NCBI RefSeq assembly: GCF_024298765.1
Contig: NZ_CP101210.1
Length of the DNA stretch: 64,000 bases
From: Escherichia coli
GTDB taxonomy: Bacteria > Pseudomonadota > Gammaproteobacteria > Enterobacterales > Enterobacteriaceae
Direction: 5' to 3' (one strand)
Both the position numbers and the translations under genes were made by a program. Of the stretch, positions 11,917-60,710 are shown piece after piece. The notes below the pieces were generated by a model. The model was given only the letters and a program-made list of their open reading frames with translations, was not told where the DNA came from and did no database searches. The number at the start of each line of letters is the position of its first letter. The first letter of the stretch is position 1.

Positions 11917-12194
11917 TACCGTTGTCTCTCGTCCAGGTTTACTCCTGATAGAAAGTCATCGGCACTTGACGGTAATTACTTATGACCAAAAACCTCTTTG
12001 CGTCACATTTTTACAACAATTATTGCAGAGAAAATTAATGCTATTGGAATGAAGAGAGTAACGAATGGCTAAACTGGCTAACCCGAATGACGAAAAATTC
12101 TGGAAAACAGCACGCAATTTCGTAAAGTGATTATTTTCGTCCCTAAGGAAACCTCATAGGATGCCTGCGGGTGCCTGAGACTTTCTGTTTTCAG

Positions 12195-12256
12195 GCTAAC
12201 CGGGAATCAGAAAGACGAAGGCCCCGACCGATATTTCTATCAACCGAGGCCAACGA

Positions 12257-12267
<11 letters not shown>
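12195..12267 (-). ncRNA. sokB: Putative SokB antisense RNA of the hokB/mokB locus (position inferred)
   Basis: Expected antisense RNA over the mok start region; candidate promoter TTGCCG-N18-TAAGAT on the minus strand with start near 12267; 3' end not defined. Confidence 0.3.
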
Positions 12268-12464
<197 letters not shown>

Positions 12465-12879: not shown

Positions 12880-12943
12880 CTTCCGATGTAGACCCGTATT
12901 CTTCGCCTGTACCACGGGTCGGTTTTAGTACAGGCGTTTTCTT
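12880..12943 (+). ncRNA. rydC: RydC small RNA (Hfq-dependent)
   Basis: 64-nt sequence cttccgatgtagacccgtattcttcgcctgtaccacgggtcggttttagtacaggcgttttctt matches RydC as I remember it; convergent with cybB. Confidence 0.8.
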
Positions 12944-28334: not shown

Positions 28335-29046
28335 ATGCGCCTATAAGGCTCTCTTACCAGCCGCGCCCTAACAGGCGCACACGATCTGACATTTGCATCC
28401 AACTTCGTTACTTACGGCCCGTAAACGGGCTGCCCGGATAGGGAATCGATAACTGCTCTCCCATTTTATCCTCTTCAAGCTGGTGCTTTATGTAATCCTG
28501 TATCTTCGCCGTGTTCTTACCCACCGTATCGACGTAGTACCCTCTGCACCAGAACTCTCTGTTCCTGTATTTGAATTTCAAATCACCAAACTGCTCGTAA
28601 AGCATCAGACTGCTTTTCCCTTTCAGATATCCCATAAAGCCGGATACACTCATTTTGGGCGGGATCTCCACAAGCATATGGATATGATCTGCACAGCATT
28701 CAGCTTCAAGAATCCGTACGCTTTTCCACTCACACAGCTTTCTCAAAATACTGCCTATTGCTCTACGCTTCTCTCTGTAGAACACTTGTCTTCGGTATTT
28801 TGGCGCAAAAACTATGTGATATTTACAGTTCCATCGGGTGTGCGCTAAGCTCTTTTCGTTCCCCATTGGGACCCCCTTTTGATTTCTTGTTTGACACTTG
28901 CAGTTGCCAGACCGCAAGGTGTTTTAACAAATCAAAAGGGGTTTTAATAACTGGCTCAAAGCTGAAAGCTTTCCGGAACCCCCAGCCTAGCTGGGGGTTT
29001 TCTGTGCACAAACAAAAGGGAAATGCATCTTTCCCTTTTGTATATT
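28335..29046 (-). mobile_element. IS200-type insertion sequence (IS200/IS605 family), ends approximate
   Basis: Y1 transposase gene plus upstream hairpins (aacccccagcctagctgggggtt; aaaagggaaatgcatctttccctttt); no terminal inverted repeats expected; ends estimated from ~707-bp size. Confidence 0.8.
28408..28866 (-). CDS. tnpA: IS200 transposase TnpA (Y1 / HUH family)
   Basis: 152 aa from MGNEKSLAHTRWNCKYHIVFAPKYRRQVFY... with HxH motif (HIHMLVEIPP). Confidence 0.9.
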   Translation of the reverse strand: MGNEKSLAHTRWNCKYHIVFAPKYRRQVFYREKRRAIGSILRKLCEWKSVRILEAECCADHIHMLVEIPPKMSVSGFMGYLKGKSSLMLYEQFGDLKFKYRNREFWCRGYYVDTVGKNTAKIQDYIKHQLEEDKMGEQLSIPYPGSPFTGRK

Positions 29047-36664: not shown

Positions 36665-39600
36665 ATGATTACTATTGACGGTAATGGCGCGGTTGCTTCG
36701 GTGGCGTTTCGCACCAGTGAAGTTATCGCCATCTACCCTATTACCCCCAGTTCCACGATGGCAGAACAGGCTGATGCATGGGCCGGAAACGGCTTGAAAA
36801 ACGTTTGGGGAGACACACCACGCGTGGTTGAAATGCAGTCGGAAGCGGGTGCTATCGCTACCGTGCATGGTGCTTTGCAAACTGGTGCCCTCTCAACATC
36901 GTTTACGTCATCGCAGGGTTTGCTGCTGATGATCCCAACGCTGTACAAACTGGCAGGCGAACTGACGCCGTTTGTCCTGCATGTTGCGGCACGTACCGTT
37001 GCCACACATGCACTCTCTATTTTTGGCGATCATTCCGACGTTATGGCGGTGCGCCAGACGGGTTGCGCGATGTTGTGTGCAGCAAGCGTCCAGGAAGCGC
37101 AAGACTTTGCTCTCATTTCGCACATCGCGACGCTGAAAAGCCGCGTGCCATTTATTCATTTCTTTGATGGTTTCCGCACATCTCACGAAATCAATAAAAT
37201 TGTCCCGCTGGCCGATGACACGATTCTTGAACTGATGCCGCAGGCAGAAATTGATGCTCATCGCGCCCGGGCACTCAACCCGGAACATCCGGTGATCCGC
37301 GGTACGTCCGCCAATCCTGACACTTATTTCCAGTCTCGCGAAGCCACCAACCCATGGTACAACGCAGTCTATGACCATGTTGAACAGGCGATGAATGATT
37401 TCGCTGCCGCGACAGGTCGTCAGTATCAGCCGTTTGAGTATTACGGGCATCCGCAAGCGGAACGGGTGATTATCCTGATGGGCTCAGCCATTGGCACATG
37501 TGAAGAAGTGGTTGATGAATTGCTGACCCGTGGCGAAAAAGTCGGCGTGCTGAAAGTTCGCCTGTACCGCCCCTTCTCCGCCAAACACTTGCTGCAAGCT
37601 CTGCCGGGATCCGTGCGCAACGTGGCGGTACTGGACAGAACCAAAGAGTCTGGTGCCCAGGCAGAACCGCTCTATCTGGATGTGATGACCGCACTGGCAG
37701 AAGCCTTTAATAATGGCGAGCGTGAAACCCTGCCCCGTGTCATTGGTGGGCGCTATGGTCTTTCATCCAAAGAATTTGGCCCGGACTGTGTACTGGCGGT
37801 ATTTGCCGAGCTCAACGCGGCTAAACCGAAAGCGCGCTTTACGGTTGGTATTTACGATGATGTAACCAATCTGTCACTGCCGTTGCCGGAAAACACCCTA
37901 CCAAACTCGGCGAAACTGGAAGCCTTGTTTTATGGCCTTGGTAGTGATGGCAGCGTTTCCGCGACCAAAAACAATATCAAGATTATCGGAAATTCCACGC
38001 CGTGGTACGCACAGGGCTATTTTGTTTACGACTCCAAAAAGGCGGGCGGCCTGACGGTTTCTCACCTTCGCGTGAGCGAACAGCCGATTCGTTCCGCTTA
38101 TCTCATTTCCCAGGCTGATTTTGTTGGCTGCCACCAGTTGCAGTTTATCGATAAATATCAGATGGCTGAGCGTTTAAAACCTGGCGGCATTTTCCTGCTT
38201 AACACGCCGTACAGCGCAGCTGAAGTGTGGTCGCGCTTGCCGCAGGAAGTTCAGGCCGTGCTAAACCAGAAAAAAGCGCGCTTCTATGTGATTAACGCGG
38301 CGAAAATCGCCCGCGAATGTGGCCTGGCGGCCCGTATTAATACCGTCATGCAGATGGCTTTTTTCCATCTGACGCAGATTCTGCCTGGCGATAGCGCCCT
38401 GGCAGAATTGCAGGGTGCGATTGCCAAAAGTTACAGTAGCAAAGGCCAGGATCTGGTGGAACGCAACTGGCAGGCTCTGGCGCTGGCACGTGAATCCGTA
38501 GAAGAAGTTCCGTTGCAGCCAGTTAATCCGCATAGCGCCAATCGACCGCCAGTGGTTTCCGATGCCGCTCCTGATTTCGTGAAAACCGTAACCGCTGCGA
38601 TGCTCGCCGGGCTTGGTGATGCCCTCCCCGTTTCGGCGCTGCCGCCAGACGGCACCTGGCCGATGGGCACCACGCGCTGGGAAAAACGCAATATCGCCGA
38701 AGAGATCCCCATCTGGAAAGAGGAACTCTGTACCCAATGTAACCACTGCGTCGCTGCTTGCCCACACTCAGCTATTCGCGCAAAAGTGGTACCGCCTGAA
38801 GCGATGGAAAACGCCCCTGCCAGCCTGCATTCGCTGGATGTGAAATCGCGTGATATGCGCGGGCAGAAATATGTCTTGCAGGTGGCTCCGGAAGATTGCA
38901 CCGGTTGTAACCTGTGCGTCGAAGTTTGCCCGGCGAAAGACCGTCAGAATCCAGAGATTAAAGCCATCAATATGATGTCTCGCCTGGAACATGTCGAAGA
39001 AGAGAAAATCAATTACGATTTCTTCCTCAACCTCCCAGAAATCGACCGTAGCAAACTGGAACGTATTGATATTCGTACATCGCAGCTGATTACACCGCTG
39101 TTTGAATATTCAGGTGCTTGCTCCGGTTGTGGCGAGACGCCGTATATTAAATTGCTGACTCAGCTCTATGGTGACCGGATGTTGATCGCTAACGCCACCG
39201 GCTGTTCTTCAATTTATGGCGGTAACCTGCCCTCTACACCGTATACCACCGATGCCAACGGTCGTGGACCGGCATGGGCGAACTCGCTATTTGAAGATAA
39301 CGCCGAATTTGGCCTTGGTTTCCGCCTGACGGTCGATCAACACCGTGTCCGCGTGCTGCGTCTGCTGGATCAATTTGCCGATAAAATCCCGGCGGAATTA
39401 CTAACTGCGTTGAAATCAGACGCCAAGCCAGAGGTTCGTCGTGAACAGGTTGCAGCTTTACGCCAGCAACTCAAAGATGTTGCCGAAGCACATGAACTGC
39501 TACGTGACGCAGATGCACTGGTAGAAAAATCAATCTGGCTGATTGGTGGTGATGGCTGGGCTTACGATATCGGCTTTGGCGGTCTGGATCATGTATTGAG

Positions 39601-40189
39601 TTTGACGGAAAACGTCAACATTCTGGTGCTGGATACGCAATGCTATTCCAACACCGGTGGTCAGGCGTCGAAAGCGACACCGCTGGGTGCAGTAACTAAG
39701 TTCGGCGAGCACGGCAAACGTAAAGCGCGTAAAGATCTTGGCGTCAGCATGATGATGTACGGTCATGTTTATGTGGCGCAGATTTCTCTCGGCGCGCAGC
39801 TCAACCAGACGGTGAAAGCGATTCAGGAAGCGGAAGCGTATCCGGGGCCATCGCTGATCATCGCTTATAGCCCCTGTGAAGAGCATGGTTACGATCTGGC
39901 ACTCAGTCACGACCAGATGCGCCAACTCACTGCCACCGGCTTCTGGCCGCTATATCGCTTCGATCCACGTCGAGCCGATGAAGGCAAACTGCCGCTGGCA
40001 CTGGATTCACGCCCGCCGTCAGAAGCACTGGAAGAAACGTTACTTCACGAGCAGCGTTTCCGTCGTCTGAATTCGCAGCAGCCAGAAGTGGCAGAACAGT
40101 TATGGAAAGATGCTGCAGCTGATTTGCAAAAACGCTATGACTTCCTGGCACAAATGGCCGGAAAAGCGGAAAAAAGCAACACCGATTAA
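36665..40189 (+). CDS. ydbK: Pyruvate:flavodoxin/ferredoxin oxidoreductase (YdbK / Pfo)
   Basis: 1174-aa ORF with two 4Fe-4S ferredoxin CxxCxxCxxxCP motifs and TPP-binding region. Confidence 0.95.
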   Translation: MITIDGNGAVASVAFRTSEVIAIYPITPSSTMAEQADAWAGNGLKNVWGDTPRVVEMQSEAGAIATVHGALQTGALSTSFTSSQGLLLMIPTLYKLAGELTPFVLHVAARTVATHALSIFGDHSDVMAVRQTGCAMLCAASVQEAQDFALISHIATLKSRVPFIHFFDGFRTSHEINKIVPLADDTILELMPQAEIDAHRARALNPEHPVIRGTSANPDTYFQSREATNPWYNAVYDHVEQAMNDFAAATGRQYQPFEYYGHPQAERVIILMGSAIGTCEEVVDELLTRGEKVGVLKVRLYRPFSAKHLLQALPGSVRNVAVLDRTKESGAQAEPLYLDVMTALAEAFNNGERETLPRVIGGRYGLSSKEFGPDCVLAVFAELNAAKPKARFTVGIYDDVTNLSLPLPENTLPNSAKLEALFYGLGSDGSVSATKNNIKIIGNSTPWYAQGYFVYDSKKAGGLTVSHLRVSEQPIRSAYLISQADFVGCHQLQFIDKYQMAERLKPGGIFLLNTPYSAAEVWSRLPQEVQAVLNQKKARFYVINAAKIARECGLAARINTVMQMAFFHLTQILPGDSALAELQGAIAKSYSSKGQDLVERNWQALALARESVEEVPLQPVNPHSANRPPVVSDAAPDFVKTVTAAMLAGLGDALPVSALPPDGTWPMGTTRWEKRNIAEEIPIWKEELCTQCNHCVAACPHSAIRAKVVPPEAMENAPASLHSLDVKSRDMRGQKYVLQVAPEDCTGCNLCVEVCPAKDRQNPEIKAINMMSRLEHVEEEKINYDFFLNLPEIDRSKLERIDIRTSQLITPLFEYSGACSGCGETPYIKLLTQLYGDRMLIANATGCSSIYGGNLPSTPYTTDANGRGPAWANSLFEDNAEFGLGFRLTVDQHRVRVLRLLDQFADKIPAELLTALKSDAKPEVRREQVAALRQQLKDVAEAHELLRDADALVEKSIWLIGGDGWAYDIGFGGLDHVLSLTENVNILVLDTQCYSNTGGQASKATPLGAVTKFGEHGKRKARKDLGVSMMMYGHVYVAQISLGAQLNQTVKAIQEAEAYPGPSLIIAYSPCEEHGYDLALSHDQMRQLTATGFWPLYRFDPRRADEGKLPLALDSRPPSEALEETLLHEQRFRRLNSQQPEVAEQLWKDAAADLQKRYDFLAQMAGKAEKSNTD

Positions 40190-40218
40190 ATGCACTGGAT
40201 AAGGATTATCCAATTCTA

Positions 40219-40327
40219 AAAAAAAGCCCGGACGACTGTTCGGGCTTGTCTTTTTATATGTTGGAAAATCAGTAGCAATGCAATGGCCCAACAGAAAATA
40301 AAATCTGTGACAATAAAGGCATATAAC
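40219..40327 (-). ncRNA. micC: MicC small RNA (OmpC-repressing, Hfq-dependent)
   Basis: Reverse complement reads gttatatgcctttattgtcacagattttattttctgttgggccattgcattgc... ending in hairpin gcccgaacagtcgtccgggc + U-run; between ydbK and ompN. Confidence 0.85.
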
Positions 40328-40554
40328 CCGCGCAGAATAACGTATAGCAAATTAAAAGTATAATTTTTATTTTGTATGTATTATCTTCAATACATTCACC
40401 AGACTTATTATCATTTCCGTAGAATTATTTGATTAAGGTTTTACTTAAGGCGTAACAAATGATATTTATCGGCTAACTGAACTTCTCCTTTAGGATGTTT
40501 TCACTCCCCGAAATGGGGATAAAAGGCAAATAAAATAACTAAAGGATTTATTCA

Positions 40555-41688
40555 ATGAAAAGCAAAGTACTGGCACTTTTAATTCCTGCCCTGCTCGCCG
40601 CAGGTGCTGCACATGCAGCCGAAGTTTATAATAAAGACGGCAACAAATTAGATCTGTATGGCAAAGTTGATGGCCTGCATTATTTTTCTGATAATTCAGC
40701 GAAAGATGGCGACCAGAGCTATGCGCGTCTGGGTTTTAAAGGCGAAACCCAAATTAACGATCAACTCACTGGCTACGGTCAATGGGAATACAATATTCAG
40801 GCAAACAACACTGAATCTTCAACAAACCAGTCATGGACCCGTCTGGCATTTGCCGGACTGAAATTTGCAGATTACGGTTCTTTCGATTACGGACGTAATT
40901 ATGGCGTAATGTACGACATCGAAGGCTGGACCGATATGCTGCCTGAATTTGGCGGTGACTCTTATACCAATGCAGACAACTTTATGACTGGTCGTGCCAA
41001 CGGCGTCGCGACTTATCGTAATACTGATTTCTTCGGTCTGGTAAATGGTCTGAACTTCGCGGTGCAGTATCAAGGTAACAACGAAGGAGCCAGTAATGGT
41101 CAGGAAGGCACCAACAACGGACGTGATGTTCGCCATGAAAACGGTGACGGCTGGGGTCTTTCCACAACATATGATTTAGGCATGGGCTTTAGCGCTGGTG
41201 CGGCATACACCTCTTCTGACCGCACCAATGACCAGGTTAACCATACTGCGGCGGGTGGTGATAAAGCAGACGCGTGGACTGCTGGGCTAAAATACGATGC
41301 TAACAATATTTACCTGGCAACCATGTATTCAGAAACGCGTAACATGACCCCGTTTGGCGACAGCGATTATGCAGTTGCGAACAAAACCCAGAACTTTGAA
41401 GTTACTGCACAGTACCAGTTTGATTTTGGTCTGCGTCCGGCAGTCTCTTTCCTGATGTCTAAAGGCCGTGACCTGCACGCTGCCGGTGGTGCAGACAACC
41501 CGGCAGGTGTTGATGATAAAGATCTGGTTAAATACGCCGATGTTGGCGCGACTTACTATTTCAATAAAAACATGTCCACTTATGTTGACTATAAAATCAA
41601 CCTGTTGGATGAAGATGACAGCTTCTACGCTGCCAACGGCATCTCTACCGATGATATTGTCGCTTTAGGTCTGGTTTATCAGTTCTAA
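40555..41688 (+). CDS. ompN: Outer membrane porin OmpN
   Basis: 377-aa ORF with signal peptide and C-terminal ...VYQF porin signature. Confidence 0.95.
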
Positions 41689-41696
41689 ATCCTCCT

Positions 41697-41720
41697 GCCC
41701 GCTGTTATGGCGGGCTTTTT
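41697..41720 (+). terminator. Rho-independent terminator of ompN
   Basis: gcccgc-tgttatg-gcgggc followed by ttttt. Confidence 0.8.
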
Positions 41721-41747
41721 CTGCTTATTCTTCCTCCTTTGATCTAA

Positions 41748-42263
<516 letters not shown>

Positions 42264-42270
42264 CACTAAC

Positions 42271-42295
42271 GCCCGCACATTGCTGCGGGCTTTTT
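42271..42295 (+). terminator. Rho-independent terminator of uspF
   Basis: gcccgcacattgctgcgggc + ttttt. Confidence 0.8.
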
Positions 42296-42438
42296 GATTC
42301 ATTTCGCAAATGTGCTGACATTTTCCCCTCTAATCCGTACCATACACGCCACAGTTTTTATATCAGATTTCTTATGCTGGGCGTTCCGGCATGACGCATA
42401 CTCTTCTGATGCCATATAACGAATTGAGTCGCTTTTAA

Positions 42439-43374
42439 ATGTCGCAAAATCAAGAAATTAGTAAGAAAGAACAATACAACCTGAACAAATTACAAAAACG
42501 TCTGCGTCGTAACGTGGGCGAAGCCATTGCTGACTTCAATATGATTGAAGAAGGCGATCGCATCATGGTTTGCCTCTCCGGGGGTAAAGACAGCTATACC
42601 ATGCTGGAAATTCTGCGCAATTTGCAGCAAAGCGCGCCAATCAATTTTTCGCTGGTGGCTGTTAACCTCGATCAAAAGCAACCGGGCTTCCCGGAACACG
42701 TTCTGCCCGAGTATCTTGAAAAGCTGGGCGTTGAGTACAAGATTGTGGAAGAGAACACTTACGGTATCGTGAAAGAGAAGATTCCGGAGGGCAAAACCAC
42801 TTGCTCACTGTGTTCTCGTCTTCGTCGCGGTATCCTTTATCGCACCGCAACGGAACTGGGGGCGACGAAGATCGCGCTGGGTCACCATCGTGACGATATC
42901 CTGCAAACGTTGTTCTTAAATATGTTCTACGGCGGCAAGATGAAAGGTATGCCTCCGAAACTGATGAGCGATGATGGCAAACATATTGTGATTCGTCCGC
43001 TGGCCTACTGCCGCGAGAAAGATATTCAGCGCTTTGCCGATGCAAAAGCGTTCCCGATTATTCCGTGCAACCTGTGCGGTTCACAGCCTAACCTGCAACG
43101 TCAGGTGATTGCTGACATGTTGCGTGACTGGGATAAACGTTATCCAGGGCGTATCGAGACGATGTTCAGCGCGATGCAGAATGTGGTGCCGTCGCATCTG
43201 TGCGATACCAACCTGTTCGATTTCAAAGGTATTACCCACGGTTCTGAAGTGGTTAACGGGGGTGATCTGGCGTTTGATCGCGAAGAGATCCCTCTACAAC
43301 CGGCGGGTTGGCAGCCTGAAGAAGATGAAAATCAGTTGGATGAGTTACGGCTGAATGTGGTTGAAGTGAAATAA
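42439..43374 (+). CDS. ttcA: tRNA 2-thiocytidine(32) synthetase TtcA (intact)
   Basis: 311-aa ORF with PP-loop SGGKDS and CxxC motifs. Confidence 0.95.
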
Positions 43375-43376
43375 CC

Positions 43377-43455
43377 CGGATAGCGCCCGATGCGCAAGCT
43401 TACCGGGCTACTCTTATGGAGGCCGGATAAGACGCGGCCAGCGTCGCATCCGGCA
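43377..43455. repeat. REP (repetitive extragenic palindromic) element(s) between ttcA and dbpA
   Basis: ggccggataagacgcggccagcgtcgcatccggcaa at ~43422-43455 is a classic REP palindrome; second REP-like unit just upstream. Confidence 0.65.
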
Positions 43456-43502
43456 ATCCCGAAGAAGATGTTTACTCTTGCACCCTGCGATTCAACATTT
43501 CA

Positions 43503-44876
43503 TTATTTTAATAACCGCACCCGGCACGTTTTTCCTTTAATCTTCCCGCCCTGTAACTGTTTCCATGCTTTATGAGCAACAGCCTGACGCACCGCGACAT
43601 AGACATGCGCCGGATGCACGGCGATTTTGCCAATATCTGCGCCATCAAGCCCGATATCTCCTGTCAGCGCACCTAATACATCACCCGGGCGCATTTTGGC
43701 TTTTTTCCCGCCATCGATACATAACGTTGCCATTTCTGCTTCCAGCGGCACAATGGAACTATTAACTGGCGGCGTTTGCCAGTTAAGTTTTATCTGCAAC
43801 ATGTCAGAAATGATATTGGCCCGCTGTGCTTCTTCCGGGGCACAGAAACTGATCGCCAGACCGCTATTTCCTGCACGAGCTGTACGACCGATGCGATGTA
43901 CATGAACTTCAGGGTCCCACGCCAGCTCAAAGTTCACCACCAGCTCAAGCGATTTTATATCCAGACCACGCGCAGCAACATCAGTCGCGACCAGTACACG
44001 GGCGCTACCGTTAGCAAAACGTACCAGGGTCTGATCGCGATCGCGTTGCTCCAGATCGCCGTGTAACGACAATGCACTTTGCCCTACTTCATTCAGCGCG
44101 TCGCAGACAGACTGGCAATCTTTTTTGGTATTGCAAAACACCACGCAAGAGGATGGCTGATGCAAGCTTAATAACCGTTGCAACAGAGGAATTTTGCCTT
44201 TGCTGGATGTCTCATAAAATTGTTGTTCAATAGGTGGCAGAGCATCTGTTGAGTCAATTTCAATCGCTAAAGGATCGCGTTGCACTCTTCCGCTGATTGC
44301 GGCGATGGCTTCCGGCCAGGTTGCCGAAAACAGAAGCGTCTGTCGAGATGCTGGCGCAAAACGGATGACATCATCAATGGCATCGCTAAATCCCATATCC
44401 AGCATGCGGTCGGCCTCATCCATCACCAGCGTATTCAACGCATCCAGTGATACCGTGCCTTTTTGCAGATGATCCAGCATACGGCCCGGCGTTGCCACGA
44501 TAATATGCGGCGCATGTTGCAACGAATCACGCTGCATACCGAACGGTTGACCACCGCACAACGTCAAAATTTTGGTATTTGGCAGAAAACGCGCCAGCCG
44601 ACGCAATTCACCTGCCACCTGATCCGCCAGTTCACGCGTAGGACACAGCACTAAAGCCTGGGTTTGAAATAGCGACGCATCAATTTGCTGTAACAAGCCG
44701 AGGCCAAAAGCCGCCGTTTTGCCGCTGCCGGTTTTCGCCTGCACGCGAACATCTTTTCCGGCAAGGATCGTCGGAAGCGCGGCGGCCTGCACCGGCGTCA
44801 TGGTTAAATAACCCAACTCATTAAGGTTCGTGAGTTGGGCGGGAGGCAAAACATTCAGGGTAGAAAAAGCGGACAC
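43503..44876 (-). CDS. dbpA: ATP-dependent RNA helicase DbpA (DEAD-box)
   Basis: 457-aa ORF (GTG start) with Walker A TGSGKT and DEAD motif. Confidence 0.95.
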   Translation of the reverse strand: MSAFSTLNVLPPAQLTNLNELGYLTMTPVQAAALPTILAGKDVRVQAKTGSGKTAAFGLGLLQQIDASLFQTQALVLCPTRELADQVAGELRRLARFLPNTKILTLCGGQPFGMQRDSLQHAPHIIVATPGRMLDHLQKGTVSLDALNTLVMDEADRMLDMGFSDAIDDVIRFAPASRQTLLFSATWPEAIAAISGRVQRDPLAIEIDSTDALPPIEQQFYETSSKGKIPLLQRLLSLHQPSSCVVFCNTKKDCQSVCDALNEVGQSALSLHGDLEQRDRDQTLVRFANGSARVLVATDVAARGLDIKSLELVVNFELAWDPEVHVHRIGRTARAGNSGLAISFCAPEEAQRANIISDMLQIKLNWQTPPVNSSIVPLEAEMATLCIDGGKKAKMRPGDVLGALTGDIGLDGADIGKIAVHPAHVYVAVRQAVAHKAWKQLQGGKIKGKTCRVRLLK

Positions 44877-44905
44877 AATTTATTCTCGTGGTCATCGACG
44901 CAAAG

Positions 44906-45079
44906 TCAGCAGGCGCGTATCCTCGCAGATCTACGCTCACGATGCGACAATTTAATCGGTTCTTCGTCGGGTGGTGGGTCAGGCATGGGTTGCGGGCGAG
45001 GGATCGGATCGGGCACTGGAACAGGATCGCCAGGAATCGGTTCAGGGACAGGAATTTGCAAATAAATAAGTGTCGTCAT
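44906..45079 (-). CDS. Candidate small proline-rich protein (57 aa), unannotated in the ORF track
   Basis: Hand-translated MTTLIYLQIPVPEPIPGDPVPVPDPIPRPQPMPDPPPDEEPIKLSHRERRSARIRAC; SD GGAGGG 4 nt before ATG; ends 30 nt before dbpA start. Confidence 0.35.
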   Translation of the reverse strand: MTTLIYLQIPVPEPIPGDPVPVPDPIPRPQPMPDPPPDEEPIKLSHRERRSARIRAC

Positions 45080-45136
45080 ATTTCCCTCCGGTCATTGGGT
45101 GGACTCTTAAAGGGTAGACGCTGACAAATAACAGGC

Positions 45137-45258
45137 AAAAAAAAGCCGACTCATCAAAGTCGGCGTCGTACGAATCAATTGTGCTATGCAGTAATTCAAA
45201 AAAGGAAGTAAGACAATATGGAGCGCAACGCCCATCGCTTGACGTTGCATTCACCTGC
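45137..45258 (-). ncRNA. fnrS: FnrS small RNA (FNR-activated)
   Basis: Reverse complement reads gcaggtgaatgcaacgtcaagcgatgggcgttgcgctccatattgtcttacttcc... ending in hairpin gccgactttgatgagtcggc + U8; between zntB and dbpA. Confidence 0.85.
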
Positions 45259-45293
45259 AAGAGAGATATTGCCCTGAATGGGTAGAGAGTTTA

Positions 45294-45307
45294 TTGACTT
45301 CGCTCAA
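45294..45307. promoter_or_regulatory. FNR box (TTGAC-N4-CTCAA) centred ~42 bp upstream of the fnrS 5' end
   Basis: 8/10 match to TTGAT-N4-ATCAA at class II spacing. Confidence 0.6.
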
Positions 45308-45353
45308 ACTTTGCGGCGTTTTTGTATACAGACAGCCGGGAAAATTGCTTTTG

Positions 45354-46358
<1,005 letters not shown>

Positions 46359-46591
46359 TTATTTTGTAGTCTAGCCTTCTGGCCCTGTTACGCAACATCT
46401 CATCACCCCATTACCCTGAAATGATTAATAAAATTCTGTCTAAATTGAATACAAAAAGCAAAATGCTTTTCCATATACAAACCGTGTGAAGTGTTAAATA
46501 GCGTCTATCATTATCAGAATTATCTGATCATATGACGTGGCTTTTTTGCGATCGGATAGCAACAAAAATTGATAAAAATAACGGGATCTCA

Positions 46592-47824
46592 ATGATTACG
46601 CACAACTTCAATACCCTGGACTTACTCACCAGTCCTGTCTGGATCGTTTCGCCCTTTGAGGAACAGTTAATTTATGCCAACAGCGCGGCGCGACTGTTGA
46701 TGCAAGACCTCACGTTTAGTCAGCTACGAACCGGTCCCTATTCCGTCTCCTCACAAAAAGAACTGCCGAAATACCTCTCCGATCTGCAAAACCAACACGA
46801 TATTATCGAAATCCTCACCGTTCAGCGCAATGAAGAGGAAACAGCATTGAGCTGTCGGCTTGTTTTGCGAAAGCTGACAGAAGCAGAACCGGTGATTATT
46901 TTCGAAGGTATCGAAGCACCGGCAACGCTGGGTTTAAAAGCCAGTCGCTCGGCAAATTATCAGCGCAAAAAACAAGGTTTTTATGCGCGCTTTTTTCTGA
47001 CTAACTCTGCACCAATGTTGTTGATTGACCCCTCACGAGATGGCCAAATCGTCGATGCTAACCTCGCCGCGCTCAATTTCTATGGCTATAACCATGAAAC
47101 GATGTGCCAGAAACATACTTGGGAAATAAATATGCTCGGGCGACGCGTCATGCCTATCATGCATGAAATTTCGCATTTACCCGGTGGCCATAAGCCTTTG
47201 AATTTTGTTCATAAACTGGCGGATGGTTCGACTCGTCATGTGCAGACCTATGCCGGTCCGATTGAAATTTATGGCGACAAGCTCATGTTATGTATTGTGC
47301 ATGATATTACTGAGCAAAAACGGCTGGAGGAGCAGCTGGAACATGCTGCCCACCATGACGCGATGACCGGATTACTGAATCGGCGACAGTTTTATCACAT
47401 TACCGAGCCAGGCCAAATGCAGCACCTCGCCATCGCTCAGGATTACAGCTTATTGCTCATCGACACCGATCGTTTTAAACACATTAACGATCTCTATGGG
47501 CATTCTAAAGGTGATGAGGTGTTATGCGCCCTCGCCCGCACCCTCGAAAGTTGCGCTCGCAAAGGCGATTTGGTGTTTCGTTGGGGAGGCGAAGAGTTTG
47601 TCTTATTGCTACCAAGAACCCCACTGGATACCGCGCTTTCGCTGGCTGAAACTATCCGCGTAAGCGTGGCAAAAGTGAGTATTTCGGGCTTACCACGCTT
47701 TACCGTCAGCATTGGTGTGGCGCATCACGAAGGAAATGAAAGCATCGATGAACTGTTTAAACGCGTTGATGATGCTTTGTATCGGGCGAAAAATGATGGA
47801 CGCAACCGCGTGCTGGCGGCATAA
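46592..47824 (+). CDS. dgcM: Diguanylate cyclase DgcM (YdaM), PAS-PAS-GGDEF
   Basis: ORF 46532..47824; start set at MITHNFNTLDLLTSPVWIVSP (410 aa); GGEEF active-site motif. Confidence 0.9.
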   Translation: MITHNFNTLDLLTSPVWIVSPFEEQLIYANSAARLLMQDLTFSQLRTGPYSVSSQKELPKYLSDLQNQHDIIEILTVQRNEEETALSCRLVLRKLTEAEPVIIFEGIEAPATLGLKASRSANYQRKKQGFYARFFLTNSAPMLLIDPSRDGQIVDANLAALNFYGYNHETMCQKHTWEINMLGRRVMPIMHEISHLPGGHKPLNFVHKLADGSTRHVQTYAGPIEIYGDKLMLCIVHDITEQKRLEEQLEHAAHHDAMTGLLNRRQFYHITEPGQMQHLAIAQDYSLLLIDTDRFKHINDLYGHSKGDEVLCALARTLESCARKGDLVFRWGGEEFVLLLPRTPLDTALSLAETIRVSVAKVSISGLPRFTVSIGVAHHEGNESIDELFKRVDDALYRAKNDGRNRVLAA

Positions 47825-59810: not shown

Positions 59811-60710
59811 CTAAACAGCACCTTTATACTTCAGCCTATCTATAAATAATGAGAATGCCGAGCCAGCATGTCGACGGTGTGGATAGTACAGGTGATAACC
59901 GGGTAAATCTGGTGTGAATTTATCCAAAACACGTATCAGTTTTTTTTCTTTAATAGCCCGCTCAACCTGATCATAAGGTAGATACGCCAATCCATGCCCA
60001 TCAATTGCAGCATCAATGATCAGGTCTATCGTATTCAGTAAAAGCTGACCTTCCATGCGAACACGAACTTCACGTCCACCGCGTATTAATCTCCAGCGAT
60101 TTGCTGTACCCGATGTGGGAAGATACAAATTAATTGCCTGATGATCTATTAATTGTGACACTGAGGTTGGAGCACTTCGACGAGAAAAATAATCCGGTGA
60201 GCCAACAATAGCCATTGGTATATCTGGCCCGATTCGAATGGCGATCATATCTTTATCCATCTCCCCACCCAGACGGACGCCTGCATCAAAACGTTCAGAA
60301 ACGACATCGGTCAAACCATAATCAATGGTAAGCTGGATATCAATTTCAGGATGCGATTTCAGGAATGTGCGCATAGCTGGTAACAATATCGTTTTTGCTG
60401 CATGTTCTACAGTAGTAATACGTATTGTCCCGGATGGGCGGTTCTGCAGATCGCTCAGGGATGTCAGGGCAGAATCTATGTCATGCAACATAGGGCCAAG
60501 AACAGACAAAAGATGCTCGCCCGCTTCAGTGGGTACAACGCTGCGCGTGGTTCGTGTCAGAAGCCGCAATCCCAATCGTTCTTCTATACGGCGCACTATC
60601 TGGCTTAAAGCTGACTGCGCCATGCTCAGGCGGGCTGCTGCGCGAGTGAAGCTACGCTCCTCTGCAACGACGACAAACGCCATCAGATCAGCGATTTCTT
60701 CACGCTTCAT
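59811..60710 (-). CDS. pgrR: LysR-family regulator YcjZ (PgrR, regulator of peptidoglycan recycling)
   Basis: 299-aa ORF with N-terminal LysR HTH; divergent from ycjY. Confidence 0.9.
   Translation of the reverse strand: MKREEIADLMAFVVVAEERSFTRAAARLSMAQSALSQIVRRIEERLGLRLLTRTTRSVVPTEAGEHLLSVLGPMLHDIDSALTSLSDLQNRPSGTIRITTVEHAAKTILLPAMRTFLKSHPEIDIQLTIDYGLTDVVSERFDAGVRLGGEMDKDMIAIRIGPDIPMAIVGSPDYFSRRSAPTSVSQLIDHQAINLYLPTSGTANRWRLIRGGREVRVRMEGQLLLNTIDLIIDAAIDGHGLAYLPYDQVERAIKEKKLIRVLDKFTPDLPGYHLYYPHRRHAGSAFSLFIDRLKYKGAV

Follow-up and report, generated by a model that had tools for sequence, protein, structure and literature searches.

Genes and intergenic features at the ttcA locus

The window, by which we mean the whole 64-kb stretch of E. 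coli DNA that was analyzed, carries uspF, ttcA, and dbpA next to one another. The genes and the features between them are as follows.

41829..42263, plus strand: uspF, a host gene that in K-12 borders the Rac prophage on its far (ttcC') side; 303 bits against NCBIfam NF011581 (cutoff 166)
42264..42438, plus strand: uspF-ttcA intergenic region, 175 nt, without prophage DNA
42439..43374, plus strand: ttcA, tRNA 2-thiocytidine(32) synthetase; ATG start, 311 codons plus stop (936 nt)
43375..43502, no strand: ttcA-dbpA spacer, exactly 128 nt; not an att site
43375..43407, no strand: degenerate REP-like palindrome (CCCGG...CCGGG) directly after the ttcA stop codon; a stem in the MFE fold
43422..43454, no strand: canonical REP hairpin with arms GCCGGATAAGACGC and GCGTCGCATCCGGC; 14-nt inverted repeat whose arms are 86% complementary
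43503..44876, minus strand: dbpA, ATP-dependent RNA helicase, 457 aa, convergent with ttcA

The identities of these genes were confirmed by protein family scores and by the annotation of related genomes. TtcA scored 513.6 bits against the NCBIfam equivalog NF007972 (cutoff 272), with residues 3-290 covered, which places it in this family, and DbpA scored 768.5 bits against NF008744 (cutoff 524) and is also annotated as dbpA in the matching genome. Likewise, uspF is annotated as such in the near-identical genome NZ_CP029164.1. An earlier note on this DNA had described ttcA as a full 311-codon gene, and the open reading frame at 42439..43374 together with the NF007972 score bears this out.

The uspF-ttcA intergenic region is collinear base for base with the region between uspF and ttcC' in K-12, with the exception of a single 1-nt indel in a T-run. 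At 42271..42290, a hairpin resembling a terminator of uspF precedes a T-run, which is a consensus match only, and the region presumably also holds the native ttcA promoter. A promoter consensus scan of this spacer returned one weak match, no more than was obtained with shuffled controls.

On the other side of ttcA, the coordinates, the length of 128 nt, and the REP palindromes that the earlier note had reported for the ttcA-dbpA spacer are all correct. The REP half-site pattern has an exact match in both arms of the hairpin at 43422..43454, and a 45-nt segment around this hairpin occurs at 40 or more places per genome (at least 40) in 5425 of 5426 E. coli genomes. This copy number, together with the pattern and the palindrome, therefore marks the hairpin as a genuine dispersed REP. 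Compared with the REP elements of E. coli in general, it is likewise an imperfect GC-rich palindrome of the GCCGGATGCGACG...CGTCTTATCCGGC type in an extragenic position between convergent genes, and we found no difference. The palindrome at 43375..43407 contains a partial half-site, GCCCGATGCG, and is kept in K-12. The RefSeq feature table of K-12 lists no REP annotation for the spacer. Predicted folding of the full spacer is more stable than that of its shuffled versions (z = -3.2), and the REP pair plausibly serves as a transcript-end hairpin for both ttcA and dbpA. It is a conserved feature of the host, unrelated to Rac integration.

Position of the Rac prophage in K-12

In K-12 MG1655 (NC_000913.3), ttcA lies on the minus strand at 1411013..1411948, and its first 50 nt fall within the feature annotated as “cryptic prophage Rac” (1411899..1434958). 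The integrase gene intR (1412000..1413235) lies just 5' of the ttcA start. The opposite end of Rac is marked by a 51-nt pseudogene, ttcC' (1434958..1435008), followed by uspF, ompN, micC, and ydbK; this pseudogene is the remnant of the native ttcA 5' end, located 23 kb from ttcA and beside uspF. Integration of Rac at the 5' end of ttcA has also been stated in three publications (PMC4632033, PMC6379469, PMC11014345). The earlier note had placed Rac at the 3' end of ttcA in K-12, and this is wrong, as the K-12 annotation, the repeated 26-bp core described below, and these papers all place the prophage at the 5' end. We did not find any Rac-bounding repeats in the ttcA-dbpA spacer of K-12.

The attachment core in the window

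Two further features lie within and around the first codons of ttcA.

42463..42488, plus strand: very probably the unoccupied attB core of Rac-type (IntR) prophages, AAGAAAGAACAATACAACCTGAACAA; 26 bp, ttcA codons 9-17
42446..42488, plus strand: extended att homology, over which the alignments to the attL side and the attR side of K-12 overlap; 43 nt, imperfect

These were delimited by a three-way alignment of positions 42340..42560 of the window with both Rac junctions of K-12. Up to and including 42488, the window matches the uspF/ttcC' side of K-12, which beyond this point enters Rac DNA. From 42463 onward, the window is identical to the intR/ttcA side, which before this point is phage DNA with a diverged version of the first eight ttcA codons. 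The 26-bp stretch common to the window and both junctions is AAGAAAGAACAATACAACCTGAACAA. It occurs exactly twice in the Rac locus of K-12, at both annotated prophage ends, and in the window it is present in one copy with 0 mismatches, which is still the only copy when up to 3 mismatches are allowed. Phage Rac-SA53 (KU052037.1) has an independent annotation of a 26-bp attP at the equivalent position, and this attP differs from the K-12 core at 3 positions.

A BLASTn comparison with the Rac junctions of K-12, which the earlier note had suggested as a check, gave a consistent picture. Homology to the right flank runs uninterrupted over 39449..42488 and homology to the left flank over 42446..47387, and the two overlap over 42446..42488, which includes the core. 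Host sequence from both sides of Rac is thus contiguous across the core in the window. In occupied genomes, the megablast breakpoint falls at query position 747, which corresponds to position 42446 of the window.

BLASTn and tBLASTx searches of the 64-kb window with the whole 23.3-kb Rac locus of K-12 matched only the two host flanks. We did not find intR, xisR, or remnants of either directly upstream of ttcA, where there is only the 175-nt host intergenic region, and neither a duplicated att core nor a ttcC' pseudogene was found in the window. An unbroken run leads from uspF through the native 5' region of ttcA, ttcA itself, and the REP spacer to dbpA, and no integration event is present. The comparison with the occupied locus of K-12 MG1655 (ttcA-intR...Rac...ttcC'-uspF) summarizes both the likeness and the difference: the host flanks of the window are 98.3-98.5% identical to those of K-12, dbpA is the same, and the length of ttcA and the 128-nt REP spacer are also the same, whereas K-12 has a prophage of 23,060 bp with a copy of the 26-bp core on either side, a TtcA N-terminus that comes from the phage (MQENQQIT), and the pseudogene ttcC', all of which the window lacks. 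A closer counterpart is the attB of rac-free or rac-cured strains, which carry the TtcA' allele (Liu et al. 2015, Sci Rep 5:16074, PMC4632033). It has the same position at the ttcA 5' end, the same core, the same MSQNQEIS signature, and the same uspF-ttcA-dbpA neighborhood, and the window differs from it by strain-level SNPs only, such as that giving G290 in place of the C290 of K-12.

We conclude, with a probability of roughly 97%, that the 5' end of ttcA in the window contains an intact and unoccupied attB of the kind used by Rac-type lambdoid prophages, whose core is at 42463..42488. The anatomy of the locus, the coordinates of the core, the lack of Rac sequence in the window, and the population frequency given below are direct observations.

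ttcA length and the ttcA-dbpA spacer in occupied genomes

The earlier note had also called the Rac site unoccupied, and it was right in that no Rac prophage lies at the ttcA locus of the window, but both the location it gave for the site and the evidence it offered were wrong. Its evidence consisted of the integrity of ttcA and the ttcA-dbpA spacer. In K-12, which is Rac-positive, this spacer is also 128 nt long and ~95% identical to that of the window. Three further occupied examples have the same arrangement of a 936-nt ttcA, a 128-nt spacer, and then dbpA: strain 123, which carries a full Rac-like prophage (recE-recT-ralR-xisR-intR-ttcA); E2348/69, which carries a ~2.3 kb remnant with an integrase fragment; and ON470595.1. 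All three of these have an integrase gene or a fragment of one directly upstream of ttcA. The occupied site of E2348/69 (locus L006, 3759..5942) holds a remnant only, made up of the integrase fragment plus a frameshifted ABC permease gene. As the length of ttcA and the spacer are the same in Rac-bearing genomes, they cannot tell occupied from empty sites; ttcA is full length with or without a prophage because the phage supplies a replacement 5' end. The integrity of ttcA and the ttcA-dbpA spacer therefore do not DISCRIMINATE, and the same argument would give the answer “empty” for K-12 itself.

The phage collection, searched with the region from uspF through ttcA to the spacer, bears on the reading in which the 3' end of ttcA is the Rac att site and the REP-containing spacer is the empty site. 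Apart from the statement of the earlier note itself, what speaks for this reading is that matches in the phage database do cover the spacer: ON470595.1 and KU052037.1 cover ttcA and the spacer, while ON032529.1 covers the uspF-side flank. However, ON470595.1 is prophage-derived, with a ~14 kb host flank annotated as ttcA, dbpA, zntB, dgcM, and smrA, and KU052037.1 is also prophage-derived and begins inside ttcA. Both records align to the window from 42446, where the att homology begins, and the match of ON032529.1 stops at 42488, where the core ends. The earlier note had named phage-derived sequence within the spacer as contrary to its claim, and while such matches were formally returned, those to ON470595.1 and KU052037.1 are host flank (ttcA, dbpA, zntB, dgcM) within prophage records and indicate no phage DNA, so we rejected them. 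The matches support an att site at the 5' end. The boundaries of Rac and the repeated 26-bp core are both at the ttcA 5' end, and the same spacer is found in K-12 and the three occupied cases, which rules out a site at the 3' end for practical purposes; we regard it as vanishingly improbable.

The TtcA N-terminus and the presumed integration mechanism

While the length of TtcA is the same in the window and in K-12, its first residues differ. The two proteins are identical at 306 of 311 positions, the differences being S2Q, Q3E, E6Q, S8T, and G290C. The window protein starts with MSQNQEIS, the native sequence, versus MQENQQIT in K-12, where TtcA begins MQENQQITKKEQ. In the alignment, the N-terminus of the window agrees with the ttcC' remnant of K-12, which identifies it as the native one. 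A four-residue form designated TtcA' has been reported in rac-free strains; it is produced by Rac excision and is regarded as ancestral (Liu et al., PMC4632033). By its sequence, the TtcA of the window is this TtcA' form of Liu et al. 2015, with the ancestral N-terminus. Published accounts of the effect of excision are in conflict, as it has been reported to change four TtcA residues (PMC4632033) or to involve three base changes, with only Q6E and T8S in TtcA (PMC11014345). The native and K-12 alleles compared here differ at four N-terminal residues (window 42442..42462). A two-residue outcome such as that in PMC11014345 would imply strand exchange 5' of the 26-bp core, in the imperfect homology. 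The N-terminus supplied by the phage varies among Rac-like phages, and in Rac-SA53 (KU052037.1 722..771) the encoded sequence is MQENQKNTKKEIYNLNKL.

For the events behind this arrangement, we infer from the literature a mechanism based on IntR and XisR in which precise excision would regenerate exactly the sequence of the window. The tyrosine integrase IntR would recombine the phage attP with the attB core, and XisR would help in excision. The attP would bear a ttcA-like start that consists of about 8 diverged codons plus upstream sequence. Upon integration, intR would come to lie next to the ttcA start on its upstream side, and phage-borne versions would take the place of the ttcA promoter and of codons 1-8; because the first codons are replaced in this way, ttcA would stay at 311 codons. 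The native ttcA 5' end would be left 23 kb away, beside uspF, as the pseudogene ttcC', and precise excision would restore the sequence seen in the window. The prophage e14 in icd (PMC6379469) is a similar case, as there too the phage carries a diverged gene end, the host gene remains intact, and a short pseudogene lies at the far end. Unlike Rac, which replaces the 5' end of ttcA plus the upstream region, e14 replaces the 3' end of icd (PMC6379469).

Distribution and history of the site in E. coli

Of 5410 complete E. coli genomes, 2488 (~46%) matched a 300-nt probe centered on the core without interruption. In the remaining ~54%, the probe breaks at the ttcA 5' end, and a 3.2-kb probe gave the same picture. 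An empty Rac site with the ancestral ttcA allele is therefore an ordinary state, and one that is already known. Of 5426 E. coli genomes, only 1643 contain the full ralR-recT-recE segment of K-12, and many occupied sites must therefore hold remnants or divergent Rac-like phages.

It is possible, though we consider it doubtful, that the site in the window is empty through precise IntR/XisR excision of a former Rac-like prophage rather than because the lineage was never lysogenized. When Rac is excised experimentally from K-12, precisely this attB and the N-terminus of TtcA' are restored (PMC4632033), and a deletion of 23,060 bp has been reported (PMC11014345). The interruption of the site in ~54% of genomes also suggests that gain and loss are evidently frequent. 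However, precise excision leaves no scar, so the resulting sequence is the same as that of a site that was never occupied, and Liu et al. interpret TtcA' as ancestral (PMC4632033).

The absence of Rac from this locus had been extended in the earlier note to the strain as a whole, which was said to lack the Rac toxin and recombination genes. This is an overreach, as it holds only for these 64 kb, in which we did not find any homologs of recE, recT, ralR, or kilR. A strain-wide absence cannot be drawn from the visible 64 kb because 4521 of 5426 E. coli genomes (83%) contain partial recE-like matches, often in other prophages. The chances are about even that Rac-type functions (RecE/RecT-like recombinases and RalR- or KilR-like toxins) are encoded by another prophage outside the window. 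Many of the partial ralR-recT-recE matches in those 4521 genomes are annotated RecE-family exonucleases in other prophages, which argues for this; against it stand the lack of any of these genes in the 64-kb window and the specificity of IntR-type phages for ttcA, which makes a bona fide Rac elsewhere unlikely.

Other features of the window

The genome closest to the window is that of E. coli strain 104 (NZ_CP029164.1), with 99.98% identity over ~30 kb. Compared with it, the window has an extra IS903B and is without the ISVsa5 of that strain, an IS4-like insertion that would correspond to position ~59959..59970 of the window, so the window belongs to a close relative of strain 104 rather than to strain 104 itself. 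The insertion sequence and the small RNAs assigned with Rfam are listed here.

51511..52566: IS903B (IS5 family), 1056 bp, with direct repeats at 51501-51510 and 52567-52576
12169..12320, plus strand: Sok (SokB)
12880..12943, plus strand: RydC
40210..40330, minus strand: MicC, between ydbK and ompN
45141..45258, minus strand: FnrS, between dbpA/ynaL and zntB
53191..53286, plus strand: McaS

The IS903B copy is bounded by the terminal inverted repeats GGCTTTGTTGAATAAATC. Its target duplication lies within AAGCGGAAAG, and its 322-aa transposase ORF is on the minus strand. It interrupts the gene of an AraC-family regulator that is intact in NZ_CP029164.1. Between smrA and McaS, at ~48.6-53.7 kb, there is a cluster that is extra relative to K-12, with genes for a DHA2 MFS transporter (the strain 104 copy is frameshifted), an HlyD-family protein, and an AraC-family regulator. 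Nearby, at ~53294..53653, only fragments of abgR and abgT are present, and abgAB is absent relative to K-12.

FnrS, MicC, McaS, SokB, and RydC are all at the positions expected from K-12. At ~30.1-31.1 kb (locus L004, 8441..9372), only paaY and a fragment of paaX are left, joined to part of a feaR-like helix-turn-helix gene. Going by the annotation of the near-identical genome, the paa/tynA/fea cluster of K-12 appears to be deleted in the window, and the distance from RydC to ydbK, which is only ~24 kb, is consistent with this deletion. An IS200C transposase gene at ~28410..28999, extra relative to K-12, adjoins an Rfam match to STnc490 at 28876..28999 on the minus strand (146 bits). STnc490 is an IS200-associated RNA.

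Implications for Rac occupancy and TtcA

The finding of an empty site carries little weight beyond annotation, and its useful part is the corrected location of the site (5' rather than 3') together with a criterion for occupancy. To tell whether Rac is present, one has to look at the uspF-ttcA junction on the 5' side of the gene or at the N-terminus of TtcA, whereas the integrity of ttcA and the ttcA-dbpA spacer are unusable for this, as both are unchanged in lysogens. As the attB is intact and its core and arms are identical or nearly identical to those of Rac, the strain should be open to lysogenization, for example by Rac-SA53. We offer tentatively the prediction that active Rac-like phages can lysogenize this strain and that variable exchange yields chimeric TtcA N-termini. 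Over the 43 nt of imperfect homology at 42446..42488, exchange could take place at more than one position and give rise to such chimeras, which might reconcile the four-residue (PMC4632033) and two-residue (PMC11014345) changes reported upon excision. If this is true, integration would replace the TtcA N-terminus and the ttcA promoter of the host with the versions carried by the phage.
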